Origin: Spirochaetia bacterium
Lineage (GTDB): Bacteria > Spirochaetota > Spirochaetia > CADAEX01
Reading direction: 5' to 3'
Length of the DNA: 64,000 bases
Assembly (NCBI GenBank): GCA_045606105.1
Contig: JAZURI010000003.1
Span: 32,001-96,000, forward strand
Below, one piece after another: positions 17,426-33,642 of this stretch (position 1 is its first letter; the number at the start of each line of letters is the position of its first letter). The notes below the pieces were generated by a model. That model saw only the letters and a list, made by a program, of their open reading frames with translations, did no database searches and was not told the DNA's origin. Position numbers and translations under genes: made by a program.

Positions 17426-19517
17426 GACATCAGAAAAAACAAAAAAGACAACATTGCTTATCGTAGAGTCTCCTGCCAAGGCAAAGACAATTGAACATTA
17501 TCTCGGAAGAGGTTACTCGGTTGAGGCTTCGGTAGGGCATCTCATAGATCTGCCTAAATCCAGGATTGCCATCGATCCGGAAAACAACTTCGAGCCTGAA
17601 TATATAACTGTACGGGGAAAGGCCGGCATTCTCAAGGAGCTTGAAAAAAAGGCATCCAAGGCTGATGTGGTTCTCCTGGCTTCCGATAATGACCGTGAGG
17701 GAGAGGCTATTTCCTATCATCTCAAGTGCGCTCTTGAAAAAAAGAACATCAATGCAAAGATTGAAAGAATCATATTCAACGAAATTACTCCGGTAGCCAT
17801 CAAGGAGGCAGTAAGATCTCCTAAGGAAATCGACATGGGTAAGGTAAATGCCCAGAAGGCCAGACGCGTGCTGGACAGGATTATCGGCTACAATCTTTCC
17901 CCTATCCTGTGGAAAAAGGTGAAGAACGGTCTTTCCGCCGGTCGTGTACAGTCCGTGGCTCTCAGGCTTATCTGCGACAGGGAACAGGAAGTTTTGGATT
18001 TCGTACCGGAAGAATACTGGAGCCTGGATGTGGAGCTTTCCAAGGGAAAATCCTCCTTTGCCGCACAGTTTGCAGGGGTTGGCGATGAAAAGGTAACCTT
18101 CGGCAGCAAGGAAGAGGCAGACAGCTTCATGAAGAAACTCGAAGGAAAGGATTTCTTGGTTTCCGATGTGAAGAAAACAGAAAAGCATATTCCGCCCAAA
18201 GCTCCGTACACCACTTCAAAGCTGCAGCAGGATGCGGCAAACAGGCTTAATTTTACCTCAAAGAAAACCATGCAGCTGGCTCAGCAGCTTTACGAAGGTA
18301 TAAACATGGGTTCCAGCCGTGTCGGTCTTATCACCTACATGAGAACCGACTCCACCCGTATCTCCAACCAGGCCCTGGATGACGTAAGGGCTTATATCGG
18401 GGCAAATTTTCCTGATCAGCTTGCTCCCAACAGCATAAACTATTCTCTTGGAAAACGGGCTCAGGATGCACACGAAGCCATCCGTCCTACCTATGTGAAA
18501 TATACACCTGACTATGTGAAGCAGTTCCTCACACCGGATCAGCTCAAGCTCTATACCATTATCTGGGAACGATTTGTTGCATCCCAGATGACAGATACCG
18601 TGCTTTCCGTAACCACAGCCGATATTCTCTGCGGCGATGCGTTGTTCCGGGTTATTGCCTCTTCCGTCAAGGAAAAGGGCTTCCAGAAGGTTCTGAAGCT
18701 CCTGGCCGTAAAGGAAAAGAGCATAAAGCTTCCGGCTCTTGCCGCAGGAGAAAAGCTCAGTTTCGAGGAATATGTTACCGAACAGCATTTTACCCAGGGG
18801 CCTTCCCGCTATACCGATGCAAGTATCGTCAAGATTCTTGAGGAAAAGGGAATCGGCCGTCCTTCCACCTACGCTCCTATCATCTCGCTTCTTCTGGAGC
18901 ACTATTATGTCGGAAGGAAAAACAAGCAGCTTATCCCTACAGCTCTGGGAAAAACCGTAAATACAATCCTCATGGCATCATTCCCTGACATTCTGGATGT
19001 GAATTTCACGGCAGAGATGGAGCAGAAGCTGGATGATGTGGAGGAATCAAAGGATAACTGGAGCCAGATGATCGGCGAATTCTACTTCCCGTTCAAGGAA
19101 CAGGCTGACAAGGTAATGTCCACACTGGAATCGGTAAGGGGAACCATGGACGAGGAAACCGAATACAGCTGCGAGCTCTGCGGAAAGCCTATGGTGAAGA
19201 AGCTGGGTCGTTTCGGTCATTTCCTGGCATGCTCAGGCTTCCCTGAATGCAAGAACACACAGTCGGTTCCGTTCTGCAGATGTCCTAAACCGGGCTGCAG
19301 CGGTCTTATAGTGGCCAGAAAGAAAAGAGGGGGTAAAAGCAAGGAATTCTACGGATGCACAAACTATCCGGAATGCGATTTCATCTGCAACCAGAAGCCT
19401 ACCGACAAGATGTGTCCCGACTGCGGATACTTCATGGTTGAACGGTACGAGAAGGAAAGGGGAACCTTCTATTCCTGTACCAATACCGAATGCAGGAACT
19501 GCGTAAAGGAAAACTGA
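17418..19517 (+). CDS. topA: DNA topoisomerase I
   Basis: IVESPAKAKTI, DNDREGEAI, SAGRVQS, ITYMRTDS and C-terminal Zn ribbons. Confidence 0.98.
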   Translation: MPKTSEKTKKTTLLIVESPAKAKTIEHYLGRGYSVEASVGHLIDLPKSRIAIDPENNFEPEYITVRGKAGILKELEKKASKADVVLLASDNDREGEAISYHLKCALEKKNINAKIERIIFNEITPVAIKEAVRSPKEIDMGKVNAQKARRVLDRIIGYNLSPILWKKVKNGLSAGRVQSVALRLICDREQEVLDFVPEEYWSLDVELSKGKSSFAAQFAGVGDEKVTFGSKEEADSFMKKLEGKDFLVSDVKKTEKHIPPKAPYTTSKLQQDAANRLNFTSKKTMQLAQQLYEGINMGSSRVGLITYMRTDSTRISNQALDDVRAYIGANFPDQLAPNSINYSLGKRAQDAHEAIRPTYVKYTPDYVKQFLTPDQLKLYTIIWERFVASQMTDTVLSVTTADILCGDALFRVIASSVKEKGFQKVLKLLAVKEKSIKLPALAAGEKLSFEEYVTEQHFTQGPSRYTDASIVKILEEKGIGRPSTYAPIISLLLEHYYVGRKNKQLIPTALGKTVNTILMASFPDILDVNFTAEMEQKLDDVEESKDNWSQMIGEFYFPFKEQADKVMSTLESVRGTMDEETEYSCELCGKPMVKKLGRFGHFLACSGFPECKNTQSVPFCRCPKPGCSGLIVARKKRGGKSKEFYGCTNYPECDFICNQKPTDKMCPDCGYFMVERYEKERGTFYSCTNTECRNCVKEN

Positions 19518-19518
19518 T

Positions 19519-20439
19519 TTGGACAGATATATTTCCTATCTTACAGATATCAGGAAACTCTCAAAGGCAACAATAAAGGCCTACACCGGGGATCTGGATG
19601 AATATTTCTCATACATGACCTCCAATGGGGAGAATCCGGATAATCCTGACAGGAACTGCGGAAGGAAATATGTGGCCCATCTGTCAAGAAAGGGATTTGA
19701 TCCGAGAAGCATCAACAGGAAAATTTCCTGCCTGAGAAAATATTATGCTTACAGGATCAGGGAAAAAGAGAGCTCCTTCAATCCTTTCGATTTTGTAAAA
19801 GCTCTGAAAACAGACCGTAAGCTGCCGGTATATCTTTCAGCCGGAGAAATAAACAGACTTGACGGTCAGACAGAAAAAAGAGAATCCGTGAGTGCTGCTC
19901 TGGGTGCCCGTGACAATGCCCTTTTCCACTTTCTCTACGCATCAGGATGCCGTATTTCCGAAGCTCTTTCCATCAATCTGGAAAAGGTGGATTTCAGCCG
20001 GAGAGAAATCGTTATCACAGGAAAGGGAAACAAGCAGCGGGTTGTTTTTTTCGGAGACCGGGGATACGAGGCTCTGGAAAAATATCTCCCTTACAGGGAA
20101 GAAATCCTGAATGCAAACCAGAGCAAAACCAAGGCCCTTTTTGTCAGCAGCAGAGGAAAGAGGCTGACAGCCGGTGGTGCTTCATACATACTCGGAAAAT
20201 ATATGGCGGAAAGCGGAATAGACAAGAAGGTTACACTTCATACCTTCAGGCACACATTTGCCACCCATATCCTGGAAAACGGAGCCGATATCAGGGCTGT
20301 ACAGGAGCTTATGGGCCATTCCGGACTTTCTTCGACACAGATTTATACCCATGTGGGAATAGGCAGACTGAAGGATATTCACCGTATTGCCCATCCCCAC
20401 GGAAGGCTTGATAACCAAGGAGAAAAACATGGAATTTAG
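19519..20439 (+). CDS. xerC: Tyrosine recombinase, XerC-like
   Basis: [40 protein letters not shown]; follows topA. Confidence 0.88.
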
Positions 20440-20962
20440 AGGAACTACCATCCTTGCCGTAAGAAAGGGGGGAAAAACAGCCATGGCCGGAGACGGACAG
20501 GTAACCCTTGACAAGACTGTAATGAAAGGACATGCGCGTAAGGTCCGCAAGATATATGACGGAAAGATTCTGGTGGGATTTGCCGGTGCTACGGCAGATG
20601 CCTTCACCCTTTTCGAGAAATTTGAAGGAAAGCTCAAGGAATTCAACGGGGACATGACCCGCAGTGCCGTAGAGCTGGCCAAGGAATGGAGAACAGACCG
20701 TGCTCTCCGTCGTCTGGAGGCAATGCTTCTGGCTGCCGATGCCGGCAAGATACTCCTTATTTCAGGTACCGGCGACGTGGTGGAGCCGGACGAGGATACC
20801 CTGGCCATCGGCTCCGGCGGAAACTATGCCTATGCTGCAGCCCTTGCCCTTCTCCGGGCCGATGTTGCAATGGAGGCATCCGAGGTGGCCAGGAAATCCC
20901 TGGAAATAGCATCTCAGATCTGTATCTATACTAACGACAATATTATCGTGGAGGAGCTCTGA
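20429..20962 (+). CDS. hslV: ATP-dependent protease subunit HslV
   Basis: [32 protein letters not shown]. Confidence 0.97.
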
Positions 20963-22320
20963 TGTTGGATTTTGATCAGCTTACACCGAAACAGATAGTT
21001 GAAGAACTTGATAAATATATCATCGGCCAGAACAATGCAAAGAAGGTCGTGGCCATGGCACTCAGGAACAGAGTCAGGAGAAAACAGCTCCCGGAGGCAC
21101 TCAGGGAAGAGGTTATTCCAAAGAACATCATCATGATCGGTTCCACAGGTGTAGGAAAGACAGAAATAGCCAGAAGACTTTCAAAGCTTTCAGGAGCCCC
21201 ATTTGTAAAGGTGGAGGCTACTAAATATACCGAGGTAGGCTATGTGGGCCGCGATGTGGAGTCCATAATCAGGGACCTTATGTCAGTGGCTGTAAACATG
21301 GTCAAGTCAGAAATGAGAAATGGTGTGGAGGCCGATGCAAAGGCCCGTGTCGAGGAACTTATCCTTGATGCCCTTCTTCCCGGAACCGGAAACAAGCCGC
21401 TTGCCGAGGGCGAAAACCAGGTTCCTCAGATTCCTGCCGGAGATTCCTCTCTCAGGGAAAAGTTCAGGAACAAGCTCCGGAACAACGAACTTGAGGAGAA
21501 GCAGATAGAGATAGATGTGAATCAGGGCGGATTCCAGCCGATGGAGATTTTTGCAGGAACCGGAATGGATGACATGGGTCTCAATTTCGGAAGCATTACC
21601 GGCATGCTGGGCAATAAGAAAAAGAAACGGAGAACCAGTGTAAAGAATGCCAGGGAGCTTCTTCTCGAAGAGGAAATTGACAAGCTTATCGATACAGACA
21701 AGGTTTCCGAAATTGCAAGAAAGCGTACCCAGGAGATGGGTATCGTGTTTATCGATGAAATTGACAAGGTGGCCGGCAGACAGAGTACCGGCGGTGCCGA
21801 TGTATCCAGGGAAGGGGTCCAGAGAGACATTCTTCCTATCGTGGAGGGCTGCAAGGTCAATACAAAATATGGAATGGTGGATACCACCCATATCCTTTTC
21901 ATTGCAGCAGGTGCTTTCCACATGAGCAAGCCGTCGGACCTTATTCCTGAGCTTCAGGGACGTTTTCCTCTCAGGGTTGAGCTGGGAAGCCTCAAGGCCG
22001 ATGAATTTGAGAAAATACTTACAGTACCGAAAAATGCACTTATCAAGCAGTATGAGGCCCTTATGGATACGGAAGGGGTAAAGCTTGAGTTCACACCGGA
22101 AGCCGTAAGAAGAATTGCGGTTATCTCGGAGGAACTGAATTCCGGTACGGAAAATATCGGGGCAAGAAGACTTCATACCATTATGGAGCTTCTTCTGGAA
22201 GAGGTCTCTTTCTCGGCTCCTGAGCTGAAGGGACAGACCATAACCATAACTCCGCAGTATGTGGACGAAAGACTTCACGGAGTATTGGGAGACCAGGATC
22301 TGGCAAAATATATCCTTTAG
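20962..22320 (+). CDS. hslU: ATP-dependent protease ATPase HslU
   Basis: GSTGVGKTEIARR, GYVGRDVES, FIDEIDK, NIGARRL. Confidence 0.98.
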   Translation: MLDFDQLTPKQIVEELDKYIIGQNNAKKVVAMALRNRVRRKQLPEALREEVIPKNIIMIGSTGVGKTEIARRLSKLSGAPFVKVEATKYTEVGYVGRDVESIIRDLMSVAVNMVKSEMRNGVEADAKARVEELILDALLPGTGNKPLAEGENQVPQIPAGDSSLREKFRNKLRNNELEEKQIEIDVNQGGFQPMEIFAGTGMDDMGLNFGSITGMLGNKKKKRRTSVKNARELLLEEEIDKLIDTDKVSEIARKRTQEMGIVFIDEIDKVAGRQSTGGADVSREGVQRDILPIVEGCKVNTKYGMVDTTHILFIAAGAFHMSKPSDLIPELQGRFPLRVELGSLKADEFEKILTVPKNALIKQYEALMDTEGVKLEFTPEAVRRIAVISEELNSGTENIGARRLHTIMELLLEEVSFSAPELKGQTITITPQYVDERLHGVLGDQDLAKYIL

Positions 22321-22331
22321 GGAGGGGAGAT

Positions 22332-23270
22332 ATGAGAGAGCAGATTTCAAACTTATGGAAAAATCTTAAAAACGGACAGAAAGTTACACTGATAATGATT
22401 TTTGTTGCTGCTTTTGCCGGAATTCTGTTTCTGTGCTCGGCAGGAACCACATCCTTCAAGACACCGCTCTTTACCGCACCTATCGGGGATAAGGATGTTA
22501 TCAGCCGTATTTCAATCCGTCTTGACCGGGCCGGTGTGGAGCATTCCCTCAGGGACGGGATGATTTTTGTAAATGACAAGGAATCTGCCGGAAAGATGGT
22601 AGCTCTTCTGGTAAGGGAAGATCTGGTGCCTAAGGAAGCTTCTCCATGGGATGTTTTCAGGATGGACAGATGGACCACCACCGATTTCGAGCGCAATGTC
22701 AATCTCCGCCGTGCCATTACAGAAGGGCTTGAAAACCATATCGAGTCCCTGGATGACATAGATAAGGCCGGAATTACCCTGGTAATGCCTGAAAAGGAGC
22801 TTTTCTCCGAGGATCAGAAAGAGGTTACCGCCTCCATTATCCTTACAGTCAGACCCGGCTCCGACTTCATCTACAACAGAAAGAAGATCGAAGGAATCAT
22901 AAAGCTGGTAAAGTTTGCGGTGGAAGGGCTTGAAACAGAAAATATCACTATCTGCGATACTGCAGGAAATGTCCTCAGCGACCTGTCGGCACTTCCTGTA
23001 CCGCCTCAGGGTATGCAGATAACCGAACCTGAACAGACCGGGATTATAAAGGAAAGCAATACTCTTTTCTTTATCGGTGAGTTCGGAGTAGGATACAATC
23101 ACATATACATGGCTCTTGGTGCTGCTGCCGTAATTGTCATTGCCGTGTTTGCAGTCAGGGGTATCAGAAAGAAAAAGGATGAAGCTCTTCTTTCAGATGC
23201 AAGGAAAATTGCTTCCGAAAATCCGGAAGAAGTTGCCAGACTTATCAAGATGTGGCTTTCGGAGGGGTAG
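22332..23270 (+). CDS. fliF: Internally deleted MS-ring protein FliF (312 aa; RBM1-RBM2 and C-terminal FliG-binding helix kept)
   Basis: TM1, WTTTDFERNVNLRRAI, TASIIL, AVEGLETENITICD, then TM2 and ENPEEVARLIKMWL; about 250 aa shorter than canonical FliF. Confidence 0.88.
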   Translation: MREQISNLWKNLKNGQKVTLIMIFVAAFAGILFLCSAGTTSFKTPLFTAPIGDKDVISRISIRLDRAGVEHSLRDGMIFVNDKESAGKMVALLVREDLVPKEASPWDVFRMDRWTTTDFERNVNLRRAITEGLENHIESLDDIDKAGITLVMPEKELFSEDQKEVTASIILTVRPGSDFIYNRKKIEGIIKLVKFAVEGLETENITICDTAGNVLSDLSALPVPPQGMQITEPEQTGIIKESNTLFFIGEFGVGYNHIYMALGAAAVIVIAVFAVRGIRKKKDEALLSDARKIASENPEEVARLIKMWLSEG

Positions 23271-23273
23271 AAT

Positions 23274-24242
23274 ATGAAGAAAAAACTTTCCGGAAAAGAG
23301 AAAGCTGCCGTATTCATCATGGCTCTGGGATCTGAGATCTCCTCTTCCGTATGCAGTCATCTCTGCAGTGAAGACCAGGAAATCCTCTCCTATGAAATAG
23401 CAGCCAGAAGAATAACCGGTGCCTGCAGCGTAAAGTCTGTTCTGTCTGAATTCAGGAATCTCATGAAGGCAGGTAACCTTACCGTTATCGGAGGAATCGA
23501 CTATGCCGGTTCAGTTCTTAAAAGGACAATGGGACTTGAAAAAGCAGAAGAAATCATCAGCCGTATTTCCCTGTTCATGCACAGGAAGCCCTTTGATTCC
23601 ATAAGAAAGGTTGCGCCGGATTCGCTTCTTGCCCTTCTGAAAGGGGAACATCCCCAGACCATAGCCGTGGTTCTTGCCAATGTGGAGCCGGAAAAGGCCT
23701 CTTCAATCCTTGCCAGACTGCCTCGTGAAATCCAGTCGGATGTGGCAAAGCGTATTGCCGTATTGGACAGAACCGAACCTGAAACTCTTCTCAGAATTGA
23801 GAAAATCATCGAAAGAAAGCATGCTATGGCTTCTGCTGCCGGAGAATACAGGGGCGGAATAGAAAGCATCATCGAAATACTGAACCATATGGACCGCAGC
23901 TCCGGGGACAATATTATAAGTACCATTCTCAGGGAGGATTCTCTCCTGTCAGCCAGACTCAGGGAAAAGAATCTCAGCTTCGACGATATTGCATTGCTGG
24001 ACAATCCTTCTGTTATCCGGATAATCAGGGAAACCGATCCGGTTGAAATCGAGAAGGCACTCCGTACAGCCGATTACAGGGTACGGGAAAAAATCATGAA
24101 CAATCTCTCCTCCGAGGTTTCCGAAAAGGTAAGAAACAACGAGGGTCGTCCTATTCTGATTGCCGATATCGAGGCTGCACAGAACAGGATAACAGGGCTT
24201 TTGAAAAAGCTTATGGAACAGGGCGAAATTGCTTTTGCATGA
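23274..24242 (+). CDS. fliG: Divergent C-ring protein FliG
   Basis: LSGKEKAA, GGIDYA, EHPQTIA, GGIESI and C-terminal GEI; MFxF motif and torque helix degenerate. Confidence 0.93.
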   Translation: MKKKLSGKEKAAVFIMALGSEISSSVCSHLCSEDQEILSYEIAARRITGACSVKSVLSEFRNLMKAGNLTVIGGIDYAGSVLKRTMGLEKAEEIISRISLFMHRKPFDSIRKVAPDSLLALLKGEHPQTIAVVLANVEPEKASSILARLPREIQSDVAKRIAVLDRTEPETLLRIEKIIERKHAMASAAGEYRGGIESIIEILNHMDRSSGDNIISTILREDSLLSARLREKNLSFDDIALLDNPSVIRIIRETDPVEIEKALRTADYRVREKIMNNLSSEVSEKVRNNEGRPILIADIEAAQNRITGLLKKLMEQGEIAFA

Positions 24243-24253
24243 AGAGGTAACTG

Positions 24254-24904
24254 ATGTCAGATATACTTTTTAAAGCCGTAGATATAGCAGAACTGGAAAA
24301 TGCCAAGGCGCTGGAGAACCGGGAAAATGCCTGTGCCGAGGCAGAAAGCATAAGGGCTCAGGCCCGTGCCGAAGCGGAGCGTATACTGGCCGAGGCTGAA
24401 AAGAATGCCCGTCTTGCCGAAAGGAAAGGGGAACAGAAGGGGCGTGATGCAGGCTTCCGGGAGGGACTTGCAGAGGTTTCCATGGTTGCGGAAAGAATCC
24501 GTTCCGTTCTTGTGAGGCTTACGGAGGAAAAGGACAGGATGCTGGCTTCTGCAGAGGATGAACTTGCCTCCCTGGCTCTTGAAATTGCAGAAAAGATAGT
24601 TAAAAGAAGCTGTGAGGAATACCGGGAAACAGCTGTTGAGAACATAAGGCATGCACTGACAGGCATCGGTGAAAGCTCAGAGGTGACAATCAGGGTCAAT
24701 CTGGAGGATATCGATATATCCCAGACCCATCTCAGGGATTTTCAGTCTGCATGTTCTGATGGCGGAAAAATCAAAATAGTACCGGAGCCGTCGGTGGAAA
24801 GGGGCGGCTGCATAGTCGAGACCGGATCATGCCGTATCGATGCCACAGTCTCATCCCAGCTCAGGGCTGTGGAAAGGATATGGAAAGATGTTCGGGAAGT
24901 ATAG
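24254..24904 (+). CDS. fliH: Export apparatus protein FliH (shortened)
   Basis: GxxxG repeats (GEQKGRDAGFREG), TIRVN, VERGGCIVET..IDAT. Confidence 0.88.
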   Translation: MSDILFKAVDIAELENAKALENRENACAEAESIRAQARAEAERILAEAEKNARLAERKGEQKGRDAGFREGLAEVSMVAERIRSVLVRLTEEKDRMLASAEDELASLALEIAEKIVKRSCEEYRETAVENIRHALTGIGESSEVTIRVNLEDIDISQTHLRDFQSACSDGGKIKIVPEPSVERGGCIVETGSCRIDATVSSQLRAVERIWKDVREV

Positions 24905-25154
24905 GGAAGCCCTTCGGAAAAGGGATACGCTGACCTTTACCGGCAGGATAGTCAAGGTTTCGGAAAACCTGGCCGAAAGCATAGGGCCGGCAGTGGCACT
25001 GGGCGATATCTGCCGCATAATTATTCCATCCACAGGCGAAGGTATCAGGGCCGAGGTAATCGGTCTGGACCGGGAAACAGTCTGCCTCAGGGCAGCCGGC
25101 TCTCTCAAGGGGGTCAGGATCGGCTCTGTAGTGGAAGCGGAAAACAGCTTGTAA
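24888..25154 (+). CDS. fliI: FliI N-terminal fragment only (88 aa, no ATPase domain); mini-protein or pseudogene
   Basis: MFGKYREAL...TGRIVKV...ESIGP..LGDIC...AEVIGL matches the FliI N-terminal beta-barrel; ends TAA TAA; no Walker A seen in the ORF-track translations downstream. Confidence 0.8.
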   Translation: MFGKYREALRKRDTLTFTGRIVKVSENLAESIGPAVALGDICRIIIPSTGEGIRAEVIGLDRETVCLRAAGSLKGVRIGSVVEAENSL

Positions 25155-25199
25155 TAAAATTTCACTTATATATCAGACCGAAAAGTTCGACAATTAAGT

Positions 25200-25604
25200 A
25201 TGGTGCAGTTTTTATATCCCGTACTAAGAGAGCCGGACATTCTCAGGAAATATCCCACAGAAATCGTTGATATGACAAAAATCGGCAATTCAGTGAAGAG
25301 AATCACTGCCGAGGTTATAATCCCTGGAGTAGGCTTTGCCTCCGTATCCCTGAAATTCAACGGTAACAGGTTCACCATGGATATTGCTGTAAACCGCAGC
25401 GGGGTAAAGAAGCTGGTGGAGGAGAGAATCCATGAGCTTGTAAGCAGGTATAAATCCCCCGATTATATCCTTACAGAGCTTTCCGTAAGGCTGGATGAGG
25501 AAAGGCTGTGCACATCCGGTTCCTGTCTCGATATCATGTCTGACAGGTGGCTCAATATCGTTTATCCCGACTCATCATCATGTCATCTGGAAACCTTTGC
25601 CTAA
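25200..25604 (+). CDS. Hypothetical protein resembling a stand-alone FliK C-terminal (T3S4) domain
   Basis: IIPGVGFASVSLKFNGNRFTMDIAVNRSGVKKLVEERIHELVSRY resembles the L.P..LG.V.I...beta-beta-alpha pattern; lies where fliK is expected. Confidence 0.5.
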   Translation: MVQFLYPVLREPDILRKYPTEIVDMTKIGNSVKRITAEVIIPGVGFASVSLKFNGNRFTMDIAVNRSGVKKLVEERIHELVSRYKSPDYILTELSVRLDEERLCTSGSCLDIMSDRWLNIVYPDSSSCHLETFA

Positions 25605-25675
25605 TAATATATTTATATTAAATAATAAAGAAACAGTTTGCAAAATTACGGTATGTTTGCTAAAATATATGCAGT
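25605..25675 (+). promoter_or_regulatory. Sigma70-type promoter inside the fla cluster
   Basis: AT-rich UP tract, TTGCAA (25638-43), 17-nt spacer, TGc-TAAAAT (25661-66), ATG 9 nt later. Confidence 0.7.
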
Positions 25676-26647
25676 ATGCAGGATGGGGCATGGGATTACA
25701 GTTCTTATAAATCTCTGTTGACAGCTTTTTCGGAAGCTTTTGCTCTCCTTGCATCCGTAAAAAACGGTATTTCCATTGAATTTTCAGAACTGAAGCAGAC
25801 AGTTTACAGCCGATATGTAAGGTCTCAGCCAAGCTATACCGCATCACTTCTTCTTGACTGGAACGGAATCGGGATTACGGCAGATGCAGATCCCGGTCTT
25901 TCATTTTACGTGCTGGAGAGACTTCTCGGAGGAAACGGCAGTCCGGGTATAGTGAACAGGCCTCTTTCGGTAATAGAGCAGGCTGTGGTTTCAGATTTTT
26001 TTTCAAGGCTTGCGGAGGGGCTGGGTACTGTTGCCGGCTGGTGCGGTTCAGAAGCTCCGGAATGGAAAAAGCTTTATCCTTCGGTATCGGAGACAGGGCT
26101 TACAGAGGAGGAATCCCCGGTTGTCATCCTGTCTTTCAATGCAGACGGAAAAAAGGATAACCTTAGAATTGTTTTCCCTGCAGCTGCAGGCAGTGCATTA
26201 TGTGCCCTGTTGTCAGAGGCTTTTGCCGAAGATGGCAGTGTAAGGTTTTCTGCAGAGACGGAGGGAGTGGTTCTTTCTGAAACGGAAAGGGCAGATCTGG
26301 GAATCGGCGATGTTATTGCATTGGGTAAACCGGGAAACCTGCTGCAGTTCAGGATCGGAAAGAAGTTATGCTGCAGATGTGAAACCGGTCTGTCAGGGGA
26401 TAAACCTGCGGTACGGACCGTGGATGTCATGCCGGAGCCTGAAAGGGATGGGACTGTAACCGTTCTTTTCGGCCGGGGAAGGATCGGAGTGGCTCAGGCG
26501 GCGGCTCCGGAAAAGGGAATAACAGCCCTGGTGGACAGAAAAAAGGGAGAGCCGGCCGGGCTTCTTGTCTCAGGAAAGGCTGTTGCTCTGTGTGAATTTG
26601 TAATGCTTGAGGATAAGCTGGGAGTGCGTATCATAAAGTTGATTTGA
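25676..26647 (+). CDS. fliM: FliM middle/SpoA domains fused to a FliN-like SpoA domain; no CheY-binding N-terminus
   Basis: LERLLGGNG...RPLSVIE (FliM middle), LGIGDVIAL...GKKLCCRCETG (SpoA1), VTVLFGR...GEPAGLLVSGKAVALCEFVMLEDKLGVRI (FliN SpoA). Confidence 0.8.
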   Translation: MQDGAWDYSSYKSLLTAFSEAFALLASVKNGISIEFSELKQTVYSRYVRSQPSYTASLLLDWNGIGITADADPGLSFYVLERLLGGNGSPGIVNRPLSVIEQAVVSDFFSRLAEGLGTVAGWCGSEAPEWKKLYPSVSETGLTEEESPVVILSFNADGKKDNLRIVFPAAAGSALCALLSEAFAEDGSVRFSAETEGVVLSETERADLGIGDVIALGKPGNLLQFRIGKKLCCRCETGLSGDKPAVRTVDVMPEPERDGTVTVLFGRGRIGVAQAAAPEKGITALVDRKKGEPAGLLVSGKAVALCEFVMLEDKLGVRIIKLI

Positions 26648-26678
26648 ATATGATGTTTTAAAATCTCTGGGAGGGGAC

Positions 26679-27173
26679 GTGAAAAACATTCTTTTAACAA
26701 TAATTTTGTCTCTTAATATATTTTCTGCACAGCATGTGTTCTGTGATACATTTTCTGCTGCGGATGAAAGTTCATTATCCATAGGGGGCGGCAGCAGTGC
26801 CGGTGTCCGGGCTGCTTCTCCGGTATTTTCCTCAGGGGACCTTTTCAGGATGATACTGGTTCTGGTGCTGGTTACCGCACTGATCTATGCAGTTTTCCAT
26901 CTCCTCAGGAAATTCCGTTTTTCAGAGAACGGGGGAGACAAGGGGGATATCCGCATTCTTTCCAGCAAGGGACTGGGACCTGGAAAGGCACTCCATGTGG
27001 TTGAGATTGCCGGCCGGTATTTTGTTATCGGTGCTTCCGACAACTCTGTTTCATGTATTACCGAGCTTACGGAGGAAGAGGGAAGGAAAATCGGTACCGG
27101 ACAATCCGTATCAGGCTTCTCCCTTGCGGAAAATCTCCGTAAAATCAAGGCCTGCAGGGAGAGACTGAAATGA
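26679..27173 (+). CDS. fliO: FliO/FliZ export-gate assembly factor
   Basis: TM followed by IRILSSKGLGPGKALHVVEIAGRYFVIGASDNSVSCI; immediately upstream of fliP. Confidence 0.85.
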   Translation: MKNILLTIILSLNIFSAQHVFCDTFSAADESSLSIGGGSSAGVRAASPVFSSGDLFRMILVLVLVTALIYAVFHLLRKFRFSENGGDKGDIRILSSKGLGPGKALHVVEIAGRYFVIGASDNSVSCITELTEEEGRKIGTGQSVSGFSLAENLRKIKACRERLK

Positions 27174-27952
27174 AAAAAGTACTTCTTCTGGTTTTACTTA
27201 TGGGATTATTCCTTTCTGCAGAGCTCTTTGCTTCCGAAAGCAATGCTTCAGGCGGTTTTGCCCTCCCTTCCGTAGAAATAAACATGGGAGAAGGGGCTGT
27301 AAACACCGGTGACAATGAAAAGACTGCCTCCTCCATAAAGCTGCTGCTGCTCCTTTCAGTAATTGCCATAGCCCCTTCGGTGCTGCTTCTCTGCACCTCC
27401 TTCATAAGGATAGCCGTGGTTCTGGATTTCATAAAGCGTTCCCTGTCGCTGCAGCAGACTCCACCCAATCAGATAATCATGGGACTGGCCCTTTTCCTTA
27501 CGGTCTTCATCATGTGGCCTGTCTTTGACGATATTTATCAGAATTCCTTCAAGCCTTTTTCCCAGGGGGAGATAGAGGCTTCCGAAATGTATGGCAGGGC
27601 TGAAAAGCCTCTCAGGATATTCATGTACAACCAGCTCAGGGATAACCCGGAAAACATCAGGCTTTTCATGAATCTCAGCGGTCTTCCGAAGCCGGCAAAC
27701 CTTTCCGAGGTTCCGACCTATGTCCTGGTTCCTGCCTTTGCACTCAACGAACTTACGGTGGCGTTCAGGATCGGTGTCCTTATTTTCATACCGTTCCTGG
27801 TTATAGATATGATAGTGGCATCCATTCTCATGTCCATGGGGATGGTCATGGTACCACCTGTAATGGTGTCTCTTCCGTTCAAGCTGATGGTATTTGTCCT
27901 TGCTGACGGATGGAACCTTATAATTGGCCGGTTGCTCAGCAGCTTTGTCTAG
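27170..27952 (+). CDS. fliP: Export gate protein FliP
   Basis: TSFIRIAVVL, QQTPPNQI, PAFALNELTVAF, LMSMGMVMVPP, LPFKL..DGW. Confidence 0.97.
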   Translation: MKKVLLLVLLMGLFLSAELFASESNASGGFALPSVEINMGEGAVNTGDNEKTASSIKLLLLLSVIAIAPSVLLLCTSFIRIAVVLDFIKRSLSLQQTPPNQIIMGLALFLTVFIMWPVFDDIYQNSFKPFSQGEIEASEMYGRAEKPLRIFMYNQLRDNPENIRLFMNLSGLPKPANLSEVPTYVLVPAFALNELTVAFRIGVLIFIPFLVIDMIVASILMSMGMVMVPPVMVSLPFKLMVFVLADGWNLIIGRLLSSFV

Positions 27953-27960
27953 GAGATAAA

Positions 27961-28230
27961 ATGGAACTCGGTGATGCTGTATACATTTTCAAGACATCCC
28001 TGATTCAGGTACTGCTTGTTGCCTCTCCGGTGCTTCTGGTCAGTCTTCTTGTGGGGCTGATAGTGTCGTTTTTCCAGTCGGCAACCTCAATCCACGAGCA
28101 GACTCTGGTATTTATTCCTAAAATTCTGGCAGTTCTCCTGGTCCTGATACTTCTGGGGGGCTGGATGATTTCTGCCATAGAGCAGTATACGCTGCATATA
28201 TTTGACATGATTCCGGGGATGACTGAATGA
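27961..28230 (+). CDS. fliQ: Export gate protein FliQ
   Basis: VGLIVSFFQSATSIHEQTLVFIPKI; AGGAG SD before ATG 27961. Confidence 0.95.
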   Translation: MELGDAVYIFKTSLIQVLLVASPVLLVSLLVGLIVSFFQSATSIHEQTLVFIPKILAVLLVLILLGGWMISAIEQYTLHIFDMIPGMTE

Positions 28231-28943
28231 ACTGGTGGCTTTTTTTCCTGGCCTTTGCCAGAATATTTGCCTTGATGCAGACTGCACCTCTTCTCTCATC
28301 AAGAAGCGTTCCGCTCCTGGTCCGCATCGCCATGTCCCTTTTTACAGCCTACGGAGTCACACCGGCCCTTACCGGAATTGTCATACCACAGGATCCGGTT
28401 TCATATTATCTCCTGCTGGCAGGAGAGGCCATGCTGGGAGCGGCAATGGGACTCTTCATGCAGATGGCTTATATGGTATTCCTTTCTGCCGGCCGGTTCA
28501 TGGGACTCTGTTTCGGAAATTTTTCGGGGGATGCCGATTCTCCGGTTGCCGGTCTCATGAATTATGCCGCAGTTTTCGTATTTCTGGCCGCATCGGGGCT
28601 CTACAGCCTTTTCTTTATAGGGGTTACCTCCTCCTTCAAGGCTCTTTCGGCCTACGACATTGCAGCCTGCAGGGAGGGAATGGCATTGCTCCTGACAAGG
28701 GGTTTTTCTGCAATGTTTGCCAAGGCACTACTGACAGCACTGCCCGTGATTGCCGTTCCTCTTCTTGTTACATTGATTACCGGGATTCTGAGACACATGG
28801 ATTTCGGCTGGAGTGCGGCCATGGTTACCGGAATCATAATGCTGGCCTTTGTCCTTCCGTTCCTTATGGATAGCTTCGGAAGCTTCATCGACAGCAGCTT
28901 TGACATAGTTTCGGGATGGATTTCATCGGGAGGAAGCCTATGA
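28227..28943 (+). CDS. fliR: Divergent export gate protein FliR
   Basis: FARIFALMQTAPLLSS..VP..VR and GEAMLG motifs; hydrophobic; between fliQ and flhB. Confidence 0.85.
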   Translation: MNWWLFFLAFARIFALMQTAPLLSSRSVPLLVRIAMSLFTAYGVTPALTGIVIPQDPVSYYLLLAGEAMLGAAMGLFMQMAYMVFLSAGRFMGLCFGNFSGDADSPVAGLMNYAAVFVFLAASGLYSLFFIGVTSSFKALSAYDIAACREGMALLLTRGFSAMFAKALLTALPVIAVPLLVTLITGILRHMDFGWSAAMVTGIIMLAFVLPFLMDSFGSFIDSSFDIVSGWISSGGSL

Positions 28944-29632
28944 TTGATGAAATCCGTGAGGTAAAGGCCACTGCCCGAAGGGTGAAAAAGGCTTCTGAAA
29001 GGGGAGATTCACCGAGAAGCAGGGAATTTGCAATGGCTTTTTCACTTCTGGCCGTACTGCTTGTCACCTTGGTTTTCGGAAAATATTTTCTCGGATGCAT
29101 CAGGGAAACCGTTGCTTCCTTTATCGGTTATGCAGTGGAGGGTGAGCTTGACGGAAAGGCTGCAGCCATGGCCTTCGGATGCTTTGTCCGGGTATGTGTT
29201 CCCTATTTTGCGGTGCTGGCTGCCGTGACCTGGATGACAGAGGTCAGTCAGGTGGGCTTTGTATTCGTTACCGGGGAAAAAAGAAAAATGGGAAAAAAGA
29301 CCCCATCCTCCGGATGGATCGGTGGAATTCTTTCCCTGCTCAGGACTGCTGCGGTGACAGCGGTGGTTTTCCTGGCTGTAAAAAGCGATTTCAACCGGCT
29401 TGCCGGTATGACAGATATGATGTTTACCTTTGTATTTGTTTTCAGGGTTCTTCTTTATGTGGGAATCCTTCTGGTGATTTCTGCATCTGCAGATTACTTG
29501 ATTGCCAGGTTCCTTCACAGGGAATCTCTCCGTATGACCAGAAGGGAGCTTTCGGAAGAACAGAGGGATGAAATGGGAGATCCGGCTGTAAAGGCCAGAC
29601 TTGACGAGAGAATGAAACAGCTTCTGAGCTGA
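28940..29632 (+). CDS. flhB: FlhB transmembrane part only (230 aa; stops before the NPTH site)
   Basis: KATARRVKKASERGDSPRSRE, QVGF, LRMTRRELSEEQRDEMGDPAVKAR, then stop. Confidence 0.88.
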   Translation: MIDEIREVKATARRVKKASERGDSPRSREFAMAFSLLAVLLVTLVFGKYFLGCIRETVASFIGYAVEGELDGKAAAMAFGCFVRVCVPYFAVLAAVTWMTEVSQVGFVFVTGEKRKMGKKTPSSGWIGGILSLLRTAAVTAVVFLAVKSDFNRLAGMTDMMFTFVFVFRVLLYVGILLVISASADYLIARFLHRESLRMTRRELSEEQRDEMGDPAVKARLDERMKQLLS

Positions 29633-29646
29633 AAGGGCTTTGATAT

Positions 29647-31668
29647 ATGATGAAAGAGAGAAAAAACAGCAATATTCTGGTGCCGCTGATAGTGCTTGTG
29701 GTGGTAGCGATGATAATAATACCAATGCCGGTACCGCTGCTTGATATCTTTATGGCAGCCAACCTGCTTTTCAGCCTTGCGGTACTGCTGATGGTCATCT
29801 ACACCGGAAAGCCTTCCGATTTTTCGGTTTTCCCGACCATGCTTCTTGTCTCCACCGTATTCGGACTGGGGCTGAATGTATCCTCCACCAGGCTTATCCT
29901 TTCCAAAGGGGCCGAATTTGACGGCAAGCTTATCAGGGCCTTCGGAAACTTTGTCGTAGGTTCATCGGGAAATGAGGGTCTTGTAATCGGTCTGATCATC
30001 TTTGTCATCTTTATCCTTGTCCAGCTGATCGTAATAACCAAGGGTGCCGGAAGAGCTGCCGAGGTTGCTGCCAGGTTCAATCTGGATGCCATGAACCAGC
30101 GGAATCTCTCCATCGATGCCGATGTGGCAGGGGGCCATATTACAGCAGCTGAAGGGGAAATACGGAAAAAGGAGTATCAGCAGGAAACTGATTTCTACAA
30201 GAGCATGGACGGTGCCTCCAAGTTTGTTTCCGGAAATGTAAAGGTGGGAATCGTCATCACATTGGTCAATATCATCGGCGGTATAATCATCGGAATGCTG
30301 CTCAGGAAGGAAAGCTTCGGTCTGGCTGTGGCAAACTATACAGCCCTTACCATCGGAGACGGTCTTGTAACCCAGTTCCCTTCCATTATGATTTCGGTAG
30401 CCACTGCCATCATAGTCACCAGCTCCACCGGTTCCGGCTCGCTGGCAGCCGACTTTGCCGGACAGTTTTCCAAAAGGCCGGAAATATACCGTATCCTTGC
30501 AGTTTTTTCAGTAATAATGGCCCTTCTTCCGGGCTTCAGAAGAGCATGGTACATTTTCATTCCTCTGGGAATCTTTCTTTTCTATCTGGGACACAAACTG
30601 GGACAGTCAGGTTCCGTTCCTGAAAAAGAGGAGAAACCCGAAACAAAGCCGGAAAGTGCCGCCCCTGCCGCAGACATAAGCATTTCCCCAGTGTCAGAGG
30701 TTCATCCTCTCTATCTGGGACTGGGATACGGTCTTTACAGATTTGCATCTGACAGCACCATGTTCGGAAACCGTATAACGGAACTCCGGAAAAAAATAGC
30801 ATCTGAACTGGGATTTGCCATTCCTCCGGTCAGGATAACAGATAACCTTAATCTTAAGCCGGCGGAATACAGTATCAGGATCAGGGATGTGGAGGCAGCC
30901 AGGGCTTCTGTCCGTGCAGACAAGCTTGTGGCCATAGCCGACGGTCCGGTATCGGACAAGGTGCTCCGAAATCTGGGTGAGGAATTCAATGAACCGGTCT
31001 ACGGAAAAAAAGCCTGCTGGATTTCGGCAGAAGAGAGGGAAAATGCCCGGGACAAAGGGTGTATAGTTACAGATATACCGTCTCTCATTATTGTCCATAT
31101 GGAGGAGATAATCAGGAGAAATGCCGCTGACCTCCTTGACCGTCAGACTGTGCAGTCCATGCTGGATGAGCTTTCAAAAAGACATCCTGCCGCAGTAAAG
31201 GAGACCATGAAGCTTCTTACTCTGATAGATATACACAAGGTGCTCAGGAATCTGCTCAAGGAACAGGTTTCCATCCGGGATCTGGGACTGATTCTTGAAA
31301 CTCTCGGCGACAGCGTTTCTGTCTCCGGGGATATCGGATATCTTACGGAAGAGACACGCCGGGGACTCAGACGGCAGATTTCACACAGCTATGCAGATGA
31401 AGGAATGCATCTCCATGTCATTACACTCAGCAGCGAAACAGAGAAAAAGCTTCTGGAAAATCCTTATGATATCAGATTCAACGAAAAGCTTGCAGGAAGG
31501 GTAATGGAGCTGGCAGAGGGAAGAAACGTGGTTCTTATGTGCAGAAAGGAGCTCAGGGCCGGTCTGGGAGCCCTTCTTGCCGGAAAAAAGAGCTTTGTTC
31601 CGGTATTATCGGCAGATGAGAAGGCAGATGACATAATTATTGAATTCCACGGAAAGGTTGATGTATGA
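29647..31668 (+). CDS. flhA: Export apparatus protein FlhA
   Basis: FSVFPTMLL, LNVSSTRLIL, VITKGAGRAAEVAARFNLDAM, MDGASKFV, TIGDGLV, LLKEQVSIRDL. Confidence 0.96.
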   Translation: MMKERKNSNILVPLIVLVVVAMIIIPMPVPLLDIFMAANLLFSLAVLLMVIYTGKPSDFSVFPTMLLVSTVFGLGLNVSSTRLILSKGAEFDGKLIRAFGNFVVGSSGNEGLVIGLIIFVIFILVQLIVITKGAGRAAEVAARFNLDAMNQRNLSIDADVAGGHITAAEGEIRKKEYQQETDFYKSMDGASKFVSGNVKVGIVITLVNIIGGIIIGMLLRKESFGLAVANYTALTIGDGLVTQFPSIMISVATAIIVTSSTGSGSLAADFAGQFSKRPEIYRILAVFSVIMALLPGFRRAWYIFIPLGIFLFYLGHKLGQSGSVPEKEEKPETKPESAAPAADISISPVSEVHPLYLGLGYGLYRFASDSTMFGNRITELRKKIASELGFAIPPVRITDNLNLKPAEYSIRIRDVEAARASVRADKLVAIADGPVSDKVLRNLGEEFNEPVYGKKACWISAEERENARDKGCIVTDIPSLIIVHMEEIIRRNAADLLDRQTVQSMLDELSKRHPAAVKETMKLLTLIDIHKVLRNLLKEQVSIRDLGLILETLGDSVSVSGDIGYLTEETRRGLRRQISHSYADEGMHLHVITLSSETEKKLLENPYDIRFNEKLAGRVMELAEGRNVVLMCRKELRAGLGALLAGKKSFVPVLSADEKADDIIIEFHGKVDV

Positions 31669-32531
31669 TCGGTGATTATTCCTTAGTTGTCAGAGCCCTT
31701 GAAAGGATAGAAAAAAAACTGGATTCCGGTATCGGTACAACAGCTGTGCCCGATAATATTCTCTATACCGAGGAGCTTCTCCGTTCAAACGATTTTTCCC
31801 ATTCCTTTATCAGGAAAATATCGGAGACCCTGATGAGGGAGGTTTCCTACGAGAATCTTCTGAGCAGAGGCTATGTGCTGAAGAGAATCAGGGATCTTAT
31901 TCTTGATAATATAAATATTTATGATATTACAGAGCCTTATGTTCCGGAAATTACGGTGTTGCTGGGCCCAACCGGAGTCGGAAAGACCACCACGGTAGCC
32001 AAGCTTGCCGCAGAGAACATAAAGAAAGGGCGGCGTACAGGAATCATCACCACCGATTATTTCAAGGCAGGAGCTGCCGAGCAGATAGAGACCCTGGCCA
32101 AGATCATGAAGATTCCTTATGTTTCAATCCGTAATTCCGAGGATATGGAAAGACAGATTGACGAATGGAGCAGTGCCATGGATTCCATCCTGGTGGACTC
32201 CGTAGGAAAAAGCCCCAGGGATGAAATGCTTTCGTCGGGAGATGTGATGGCAGGCTGCGGACAGGCGGCTCACAGGTTCCTGGTGGTAAGTGCCTCCACA
32301 AAAGGGTCCGACCTGGTAAGGATCATGAAGCAGTTCGATATTTTCGGATACGATTCCGTTATATGCACGAAGCTGGACGAGACCTACCATATCGGCAACC
32401 TTATTTCCGCACTTGCGGAGGCAGACAGAAGCATAGCCTACATAACTACGGGGCAGAAGATACATGTAAATATAGAGAAGGCCTCAAAGGAAAGGCTTCT
32501 CGGTTATCTGGAAGGATTTGCTGCAGTATGA
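31665..32531 (+). CDS. flhF: SRP-type GTPase FlhF (N-terminal B domain largely absent)
   Basis: GPTGVGKTTTVAKLAA, DSVGKSPRD, TKLDET, YITTGQ; follows flhA. Confidence 0.88.
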   Translation: MIGDYSLVVRALERIEKKLDSGIGTTAVPDNILYTEELLRSNDFSHSFIRKISETLMREVSYENLLSRGYVLKRIRDLILDNINIYDITEPYVPEITVLLGPTGVGKTTTVAKLAAENIKKGRRTGIITTDYFKAGAAEQIETLAKIMKIPYVSIRNSEDMERQIDEWSSAMDSILVDSVGKSPRDEMLSSGDVMAGCGQAAHRFLVVSASTKGSDLVRIMKQFDIFGYDSVICTKLDETYHIGNLISALAEADRSIAYITTGQKIHVNIEKASKERLLGYLEGFAAV

Positions 32532-33340
32532 TTGAAGAGGATGTTATGGATAAAGCAGATTTTTTGACTGATGAAGAAAGAATGGAGCAGGAGCTCTGGA
32601 AAAAATATAAGGAAACCGAGAATCCGGAACTGGAAAACCAGATAATCAAGAAATATCTTTACCTGGTCAAATATGTGGCAGGTAAGATTCCGCTGAATCC
32701 GGGTTCAGGGGTGGAGTTTGAAGATTACTGCGGCTTCGGAGTACTGGGTCTTCTGGATGCAGTCAGGAAATTTGACCTGGGAAAAAATACTAAATTCAAG
32801 ACCTATGCCATTATCAAGATCAGGGGAGCCATAATCGATGAAATGAGAAAGCTGGATTTTTTCCCAAGATCGGTTCACCAGACTGCCAAGGCTATCGAGG
32901 ACAATATCAGAATTCTGGAGGAGAAGCTGGAAAGAGTTCCGAGTGATGAGGAAATTGCGGAGCACATGAATATTTCTGTCCAGGAATTCAGACGGAAGCT
33001 TCAGAGAGTCAGCTGTACCACCATTATCTCCCTTAATGAGCAGTGGGCTTCCGGTGACAACGACAAGCTATCCCTGCTTGATACCCTTGAATCCCCGGCC
33101 GGTCTTAATCCCGAAACCATAGCAGAACGGAAGGAGATCATCAGGGTGGTTTCCGATGCCATCATGACACTTCCTGAAAAGGAGAGACAGGTACTCTTCC
33201 TGTATTACAAGGAGGAGCTTACTTTGAAGGAAATCGGCAATACCCTTGATGTTACCGAATCGAGAATATCGCAGCTTCATGCCAAGGCTGTACTGACCCT
33301 CAGAACCAGGCTTTCAAATTCAAGAAGGGGAATCTGTTGA
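32528..33340 (+). CDS. fliA: FliA/WhiG (sigma-28) RNA polymerase sigma factor
   Basis: GLLDAVRKFD, FKTYAIIKIRGAIIDEMR, YYKEELTLKEIG..LDVTESRISQLH; ATGA overlap with flhF. Confidence 0.95.
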   Translation: MIEEDVMDKADFLTDEERMEQELWKKYKETENPELENQIIKKYLYLVKYVAGKIPLNPGSGVEFEDYCGFGVLGLLDAVRKFDLGKNTKFKTYAIIKIRGAIIDEMRKLDFFPRSVHQTAKAIEDNIRILEEKLERVPSDEEIAEHMNISVQEFRRKLQRVSCTTIISLNEQWASGDNDKLSLLDTLESPAGLNPETIAERKEIIRVVSDAIMTLPEKERQVLFLYYKEELTLKEIGNTLDVTESRISQLHAKAVLTLRTRLSNSRRGIC

Positions 33341-33642
33341 TCTGGCTGCTTGTTTCCGTAAACCTGGTGTTTCTCCTGGTGGCTCTTTTTGTCATCCGCC
33401 GATATTTCAGGCGTGTTTCCGGGGAGCTCAATTCCCTTGTGGAGGAGTTCAACAGAAATGCGGAAAGAAATCTGATACTTCTGGAAGACAGGCTGCGCAG
33501 GATAGACAATCCCGACGACCGTACCCTTTACCAGGTCAGGCTTCTTCATAAAGAGGGGCTTTCGGAGGCGGAAATTGCGGAAAAGCTTTCGCTTCCCCTT
33601 TCTCAGGTCTCCTTTATCATAGATTTTTCAGATAAGCTCTGA
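33337..33642 (+). CDS. Small protein with N-terminal TM, coiled-coil and C-terminal HTH-like segment; last gene of the fla cluster
   Basis: ELNSLVEEFNRNAERNLILLEDR; LHKEGLSEAEIAEKLSL; TTGA overlap with fliA. Confidence 0.7.
   Translation: MIWLLVSVNLVFLLVALFVIRRYFRRVSGELNSLVEEFNRNAERNLILLEDRLRRIDNPDDRTLYQVRLLHKEGLSEAEIAEKLSLPLSQVSFIIDFSDKL

Follow-up and report, generated by a model that had tools for sequence, protein, structure and literature searches.

A FliG without its torque residues, kept under purifying selection and probably serving as a static adaptor within a relic flagellar export core of gut spirochaetes

Why would a bacterium in which no flagellar stator can be found go on encoding FliG, and what would be left for such a rotor protein to do? 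The question is raised by a stretch of 64,000 nucleotides from a Spirochaetia bacterium (assembly GCA_045606105.1, contig JAZURI010000003.1, positions 32,001 to 96,000 of the forward strand; hereafter the window), in which fliG is an intact open reading frame (ORF) of 322 amino acids (aa) at 23274..24242 (+). Pfam and NCBIfam profiles and alignments identify it as an orthologue of the FliG2 type, with a torque-helix segment (24056..24200, +) that has been remodelled. The answer we favour, with a probability of roughly 0.7, is that this FliG is a static adaptor in the relic flagellar type III export core of a stator-less gut spirochaete genus. We infer this role from the substitutions, the missing partners, purifying selection, the kept FliF and FliM motifs and the conserved export gate, taken together.

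That the protein belongs to the FliG family is plain. All three Pfam domains are recognised above their gathering scores (FliG_N 1.4e-30, over profile positions 1-104 of 104; FliG_M 1.2e-23; FliG_C 6.9e-20), and the NCBIfam equivalog model for fliG, TIGR00207, gives 262.3 bits against a cut-off of 226.7, compared with 493.4 for the FliG of a motile sister genus. Searched with phmmer against solved structures, the protein matches 16 distinct chain sequences, each of them a FliG or a FliF-FliG fusion, the best being 1lkv from Thermotoga maritima (6.9e-39). The gene keeps the position between fliF and fliH that is expected in a flagellar operon.

What has changed lies in the parts that face the stator. 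The initial annotation, aligning by eye the peptide encoded at 24056-24200 within the fliG ORF, had read R281>E, D288/D289>N/N and R297>L together with a 2-residue deletion. HMMER and MAFFT alignments reproduce all of these changes, and proper alignment leaves the charged positions unrestored. With numbering taken from the annotated record of E. coli K-12 fliG (aligned with MAFFT), the K, R, D, D and R of positions 264, 281, 288, 289 and 297 correspond to R, E, N, N and L in the window FliG (R264, E281, N288, N289 and L295 in its own numbering), so that the charged set K264/R281/D288/D289/R297 of a torque-generating FliG is not found in it. HMMER alignments to 1lkv, to 8z4d (Vibrio) and to 3usw (Helicobacter pylori) give an identical 2-residue gap and the same substitutions. 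The MFxF hinge motif used in switching reads NLSF, as first noted (residues 233-236; 23970..23981, +), against MFVF in 12 of 12 relatives outside the genus. The EHPQ motif of the FliM-contact region had been called intact, and it is (residues 125-128; 23646..23657, +). As for the FliF-binding N-terminus, also called intact, the FliG_N domain and its motifs are conserved, and from that sequence FliF binding may be presumed. An AlphaFold2 model (52-sequence alignment) is all-helical, with a mean predicted local distance difference test score of 80.4 (83-90 in the C-domain blocks) and a short predicted helix at the torque position, residues 280-288; its predicted template-modelling score of 0.34 is unsurprising in a flexible protein of three domains. 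The FliG fold is predicted to be kept.

The substitutions take on meaning only if the right relatives are compared. The window's own genome (G000; 1,464,972 bases in 11 contigs, 99% complete) is one of nine available for its genus (1.2-1.8 megabases, 74-99% complete), six of which make up a clade we call the G002 group. FliG was surveyed in 41 genomes (G000 and 40 relatives), and 37 had a match. The relatives within the genus are metagenome bins, mostly from the ruminant fore-stomach, and the public sequencing runs that contain the cluster are metagenomes of the gut or faeces of animals, belonging to 8 studies. As a reference we annotated in full the flagellar operon of a complete sister-genus genome, G011, which runs hslU-flgB-flgC-fliE-fliF-fliG-fliH-fliI-fliJ-...-fliK-flgD-flgE-...-motA-motB-...-fliM-fliY-fliOPQR-flhB-flhA-flhF-flhG-...-fliA. 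The order dprA-topA-xerC-hslV-hslU-fliF-fliG-fliH in the window agrees with the sister-genus operon, the window FliG is 43% identical to the FliG of that operon, and the FliG_C profile has a single match in the whole G000 genome; the window gene is therefore the operon-type orthologue, FliG2 in the naming of the spirochaete paralogues FliG1 and FliG2. A divergent FliG1 was considered and rejected on the synteny and the identities, since the second FliG-like matches of the relatives reach only 21-35%. (Elsewhere in G000 there is a weak match to the FliG middle domain at C11:112807-113133 (-), E 5.4e-6, which three in-frame stops interrupt and which is perhaps a dead remnant or else an MgtE-N-like region.)

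An alignment of 20 operon-type FliG proteins, eight from the genus and 12 from other genera, shows that motile relatives do not carry the substitutions: 12 of the 12 outsiders have R at 281, an acidic pair at 288/289, R at 297 and MFVFED. A residue-by-residue comparison set the eight genus genomes with a whole FliG against four genomes outside it (three from the sister genus and one from another family of the class). Position 264 is R in 8/8 of the genus and K in 4/4 outside; 281 is E or D in 8/8, against R in 4/4; 288 is Q, S or N in 8/8, against E in 4/4; and 289 is N or P in 8/8, against D in 4/4. Position 297 varies within the genus, being R in six of the eight (the G002 group), P in G005 and L in G000, and is R in all four outsiders. 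The 2-residue deletion is common to all eight whole FliGs of the genus, and the G002 group has EQPQ where G000 has EHPQ. Over the 39-residue torque segment the three motile sister genera are identical to one another at 38-39 positions; G000 matches a motile orthologue at 12. Because all 12 relatives outside the genus are canonical and the segment is near-invariant among motile genera, the loss of the torque residues is not chance.

The partners that those residues served are missing as well. The initial annotation had noted that motA and motB are absent from the cluster; they are also not found in the 99%-complete genome, and MotA_N matches 0/9 genus genomes against 8/11 of the sister genus (the three negative sister genomes are 58%, 81% and 99% complete, and the model scores near its cut-off). 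MotB_plug, Flg_bb_rod, CheW and MCPsignal have 0 matches in the G000 genome, and Flagellin_N and Flg_bbr_C have none in G000, 0/9 in the genus and 11/11 in the sister genus. When 32 proteins of the G011 operon were searched by tblastn against the whole G000 genome, 14 had no match: flgB, flgC, fliE, fliJ, fliK, flgD, flgE, motA, motB, fapA and four unnamed ORFs. Gaps in the assembly are not the cause, as the deletions lie within contiguous sequence and the stator, rod/hook and flagellin genes are unfound in all nine genus genomes. Thus hslU (20962..22320, +) adjoins fliF, which starts at 22332, where the sister genus has flgB-flgC-fliE, and a FliK-like ORF ending at 25604 is followed by the FliM/N gene from 25676. 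The one MotA_ExbB match in G000, a 205-aa protein on contig C9 followed by a 147-aa ORF, was considered as a hidden stator and rejected: its length, its best NCBIfam scores (TolQ, at 61 bits, and ExbB, with the MotA model at 19.8 bits) and the want of a MotA_N match all mark it as something else.

FliG is under purifying selection. Pairwise omega (the non-synonymous to synonymous rate ratio, NG86) was computed for whole FliG, for its domains and for the torque segment. Whole-protein values are 0.049-0.097 over 15 pairs of the G002 group (synonymous divergence, dS, 0.26-0.93) and 0.159 for G000 against G005 (dS 1.6, near saturation), the corresponding range for three motile sister genera being 0.012-0.020. 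Of the three domains, C is under the least constraint in the G002 group (N 0.033-0.107, M 0-0.072, C 0.076-0.154) and under the most in the motile genera (N 0.019-0.039, M 0.011-0.015, C 0.005-0.011); the G000-G005 pair, with dS near saturation, does not show the G002-group order (N 0.221, M 0.140, C 0.116). For the torque segment omega is 0-0.22 in the G002 group and 0.149 between G000 and G005, against 0.006-0.013 in motile genera. Such low values mean that the segment changed in a burst and that the sequence which resulted is now conserved in its turn.

The rest of the cluster is conserved alongside. All retained cluster genes are intact ORFs in both G000 and G005, with omega from 0.090 (FliP) to 0.331 (FliM/N) and dS not estimable for FliA; the neighbouring hslU and hslV give 0.045 and 0.055. 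Strain-level contigs from four public runs have no indels across 19500-34000. Among 40 listed of the 114 strain differences in that interval, both in fliG are synonymous, while FliP has 5 synonymous and 0 non-synonymous and FliR 9 and 2.

What FliG would be attached to can be read from the cluster, all of it on the forward strand, whose proteins are 23-64% identical to sister-genus flagellar proteins (FliM, FlhB and FliH lowest). Upstream, fliF (22332..23270, 312 aa) keeps its first transmembrane segment (TM1), ring-building motifs 1 and 2 (RBM1-2), TM2 and the C-terminal FliG-binding helix, and the RBM3/collar region is deleted: only aa 11-229 of 569 align by tblastn, and positions 9-223 of 555 in the NCBIfam profile. 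The protein has 311-314 aa in G000, G005 and the G002 group, RBM3 being cleanly deleted in each and TM1 and RBM1-2 highly conserved with the motile protein. Downstream, fliH (24254..24904, 216 aa; FliH 9.9e-24) has an omega of 0.124 and adjoins an ORF with only the N-terminal domain of FliI (24888..25154; best NCBIfam match FliI/YscN, profile 12-94 of 440), which is conserved in G005 (54% identity, omega 0.31). The ATPase domain of FliI was not found in the G000 or G005 genome; the G002 group has both FliI and FliJ intact, and G000 has only FliH and the FliI N-domain ORF. There follows a 134-aa ORF resembling the C-terminal domain of FliK (25200..25604; a weak Pfam Flg_hook match of 4.2e-4, below cut-off), whose counterparts make a set of 118-134 aa in eight genus genomes, directly upstream of the FliM/N fusion in the seven others.

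That fusion (25676..26647, 323 aa) joins a FliM middle domain to two tandem SpoA domains. It has no counterpart of the first ~45 residues of canonical FliM, the N-terminal segment that binds CheY; an LLGGxG...NRPxSxxEQ block is invariant across the genus FliM/N proteins and motile FliM. Its extra C-terminal SpoA domain aligns to the C-terminus of sister-genus FliY, and we therefore regard the gene as a FliM-FliN(Y) fusion. FliMN_C matches 8/9 genus genomes (G001 being the one without) and 9/11 of the sister genus, in the genus as two tandem SpoA matches within one frame of 323-340 aa. The membrane parts of the export gate, FliP, FliQ, FliR, FlhA and FlhB, are all present. Pfam identifies fliO, fliP, fliQ and fliR at 26679..28943; flhB (28916..29632, 238 aa) has the membrane part only (profile 4-240 of 335), with the C-terminal switch domain missing; and flhA (29647..31668, 673 aa, 2.2e-198) is intact. 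FliP is found in 9/9 genus genomes and so is FlhA (FHIPEP), in open frames of 674-692 aa. FlhB ends at 238-250 aa in eight of them, at the same point just past the membrane part, and has 348 aa in G001. G001 followed a different reduction path (G001:C2 7951-10399): its FliF has 470 aa and keeps part of RBM3, its FliG does not have the 2-residue deletion, and a 107-aa FliK-like remnant and then thiI come after that FliG.

In a flagellar basal body FliG contacts the C-terminus of FliF through FliG_N and FliM through FliG_M; FliH docks on SpoA domains and, together with FliI, feeds FlhA. Solved complexes among the structure matches are consistent with these contacts. The same scheme, reduced, would account for the window. 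We suppose that the stators, chemotaxis and all axial flagellar parts were lost in a small-genome genus of the animal gut; once there was nothing more to be pushed or switched, FliG would have shed the charges that contact the stator along with its MFxF hinge, and the torque helix would have become two residues shorter, FliG itself being kept. FliG_N would hold the C-terminal helix of the shortened, SctJ-like FliF, and FliG_M, by its EHPQ motif, the FliM-FliN fusion with its two SpoA domains; the fusion would in turn dock FliH, plus FliI and FliJ in some species, making a FliG/FliM-N/FliH platform beneath the FliPQR-FlhB-FlhA gate. The apparatus may still carry something across the inner membrane, either proteins bound for the periplasm or ions. 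Of the structural, non-rotating C-ring proposed in the initial annotation, the loss of torque residues and stators, the purifying selection and the kept FliF and FliM motifs all stand; the assembly of FliG with its partners into a ring is predicted from these motifs. A complex prediction for FliG 105-200 with residues 1-190 of the FliM/N fusion scored 0.17 against a mark of 0.32 and speaks neither for nor against binding.

Several observations weigh against a working adaptor. Constraint on FliG is some 4-10 times looser than in motile relatives, and omega for G000-G005 is rough, dS being near saturation. The C-terminal domain of FliI, found in 6/9 genus genomes, was not found in G000, G001 or G005, though FliH is kept; FlhB is without its cytoplasmic switch domain; and no canonical export substrate is in evidence, no rod, hook, filament or FlgD gene having been found. 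In G001 the gate is intact on another contig, FliG is 221 aa long with internal deletions and no FliM/N was found, so that a FliG-based platform must be dispensable in at least one lineage. The genus members other than G000 are metagenome bins, 74-99% complete. Finally, contigs of RNA library X9 at >=95% identity (nearly all >=99%) cover 30/30 bins of 19500-34000, and X20, another run from that study, covers 19/30, but this cover may be DNA carry-over and is not counted as transcription.

Some of these points are what slow decay would produce, that is, a non-functional remnant nearing complete loss in which FliG is an unbroken pseudogene and the torque residues simply drifted first. Gene subsets do differ among genus members (FliI and FliJ are confined to the G002 group, and the FliG of G001 is degraded), FliI and FliK are present in G000 only as fragments, the relaxed constraint fits, the known substrates were not found by tblastn in G000, and spirochaetes can lose the system altogether, as Sphaerochaeta did (in the accessible part of PMC3372971). 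We nevertheless consider decay unlikely. Omega is 0.05-0.16 over dS of 0.26-1.6, and 0-0.22 even in the torque segment, with FliG free of stops and frameshifts in 8/9 species; both main clades of the genus share a FliF without RBM3, the FliG deletion, the FliM-N fusion and an FlhB cut at one place; FliP, at 251 bits, is on a par with its motile counterpart (252 bits); and the strain differences in cluster genes, among those listed, are mostly synonymous.

The separability of gate and FliG in G001 also leaves room for another role. FliG, perhaps with FlhF, FliF and sigma-28, might have been kept as a polar landmark, for division or shape, or as a regulatory checkpoint, the gate being kept separately; FlhF and FliA are retained genus-wide, and FlhG is not found. 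This we judge quite unlikely, given that fliG is still sandwiched between fliF and fliH, that what is conserved in FliG, FliF and FliM is their partner-contact motifs, and that no evidence of another FliG partner was found in this analysis. Highly improbable is a re-wired rotor, in which the torque segment would have adapted to a different partner, for example a TolQ/ExbB-like plus ExbD-like pair, with some force coupling persisting: the charge at R281 is reversed, not just neutralised, in 8/8 genus FliGs, the remodelled segment is under purifying selection and contig C9 does carry one ExbB/TolQ-like gene followed by a small ORF, but with rod, hook and filament genes not found there is nothing to turn, FliF has no RBM3, the ExbB-like protein scores as TolQ/ExbB and not MotA, lies on a different contig and has no MotA_N, no NCBIfam family was found for the 147-aa ORF downstream, and G000 and G005 no longer have R297.

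The static adaptor therefore remains the reading we prefer, and it can be placed beside known systems. Canonical FliG proteins (E. coli, Salmonella, T. maritima and the spirochaete FliG2) share with the window protein the three domains, a TIGR00207 score above cut-off, EHPQ and the fliF-fliH position. The window FliG differs from them in having lost R281, D288, D289 and R297, in the change of K264 to R, in the 2-residue deletion, in NLSF for MFVF, in a genome where no MotA/B was found, and in a C domain that is the least constrained (G002-group pairs) and not the most. The lost positions include the very residues, D289 and R281, with which R90 and E98 of MotA pair (in the accessible part of PMC7564593). 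A natural mutation has in effect separated the scaffold role of FliG from its motor role, which makes the protein useful for C-ring structure-function work, and in the best-sampled clade, the G002 group, constraint is concentrated on the FliF- and FliM-binding domains.

That a reduced, host-associated bacterium can keep a relic flagellar export core is already known, from Buchnera aphidicola, which makes no filament and yet retains genes for flagellar type III export and the rings. In the portions of the literature available to us, retention of such genes is held to imply a function other than motility (PMC13468123; PMC8109811); filament-less basal bodies, used or suspected to be used for secretion, are encoded by 26 genes including 12 flg, and a secreted effector is now described for them (PMC13468123). 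The present genus is more reduced than Buchnera, with no flg rod/hook genes or fliE found; its FliF has no RBM3, its FlhB no C-domain, FliM and FliN are fused, FliI is missing in 3/9 genomes, and the ancestral flagellum was periplasmic. Among spirochaetes, the non-motile coccoid Sphaerochaeta has likewise abandoned periplasmic-flagellum motility; it lost every motility gene, according to the part of PMC3372971 consulted, and the present genus retains about 13-15 flagellar genes under selection. A literature search, with supplements and subscription journals outside its reach, turned up no account of this genus and none of a FliG lacking its torque residues.

Reduction of this kind has a suggested precedent in the origin of injectisomes. 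Abby and Rocha (2012) propose, in the accessible part of PMC3459982, that these began by losing flagellum-specific genes while translocation was kept, and describe there a secretin-less relic type III secretion system (T3SS) of Myxococcales without FlgBCDEK, FliE, FliG, FlgH and MotAB. The window core resembles this 'Myxo' T3SS as it is described there, being a T3SS core without FlgBCDEK, FliE and MotAB for which translocation is proposed to have outlasted motility. It is also alike as regards the secretin: a single G000 match to SctC, at 16.5 bits, falls below the 27.5-bit cut-off. The needle protein SctF has no match in G000 either, a miss that is uninformative, the control for that search having matched 0/14 control genomes. 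It differs, as far as that source goes, in having kept FliG and in a flagellar identity that is plain from synteny and from the 23-64% protein identity; the core of this genus is a recent, independent reduction within Spirochaetia.

A further proposal goes beyond the static adaptor, and we advance it tentatively, at somewhat less than even odds: that what was once the core of a periplasmic flagellum in these spirochaetes now serves solely as an inner-membrane translocase, with neither rod nor stator, an independent replay of the proposed first step towards the injectisome. Its parts would be the SctJ-like FliF (RBM1-2), the SctQ-like FliM-FliN, an FlhB without the switch domain and the stand-alone protein resembling the FliK C-terminus, and the once stator-facing surface of FliG would have been remade, after which selection for a new role, static or partner-binding, would have stabilised it again. 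We take the SctJ layout to resemble FliF with RBM1-2 only and the SctQ layout to resemble the two-SpoA FliM/N, so that the remodelled core converges in layout on injectisome parts. It may be a natural intermediate of the transition from flagellum to secretion system, one that in the available part of PMC3459982 has so far been inferred from phylogeny only.

The distal end of the cluster, also on the forward strand, holds flhF (31665..32531, 288 aa; recognised by tblastn, by comparison with G005 and by NCBIfam), fliA of the sigma-28 family (32576..33340; FliA/WhiG subfamily, 251.7 bits against a cut-off of 189.6) and, directly 3' of fliA, a 101-aa ORF (33337..33642) that is 63% identical in G005 and 29% in G001; for the last, NCBIfam gives no family and Pfam only weak sigma-70-like matches. 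A tblastn search for FlhG found only a weak ParA/MinD-like match on C10. FlhF and sigma-28 are retained throughout the genus, in which neither flagellin nor any other of the usual sigma-28 targets was found. A scan of G000 with a sigma-28 consensus gives 6 strict matches, close to the chance number, which we roughly estimate at 4. One of the six, at C5:77069 (+), lies 78 nucleotides upstream of an ORF of 218 aa that has a membrane helix at its N-terminus.

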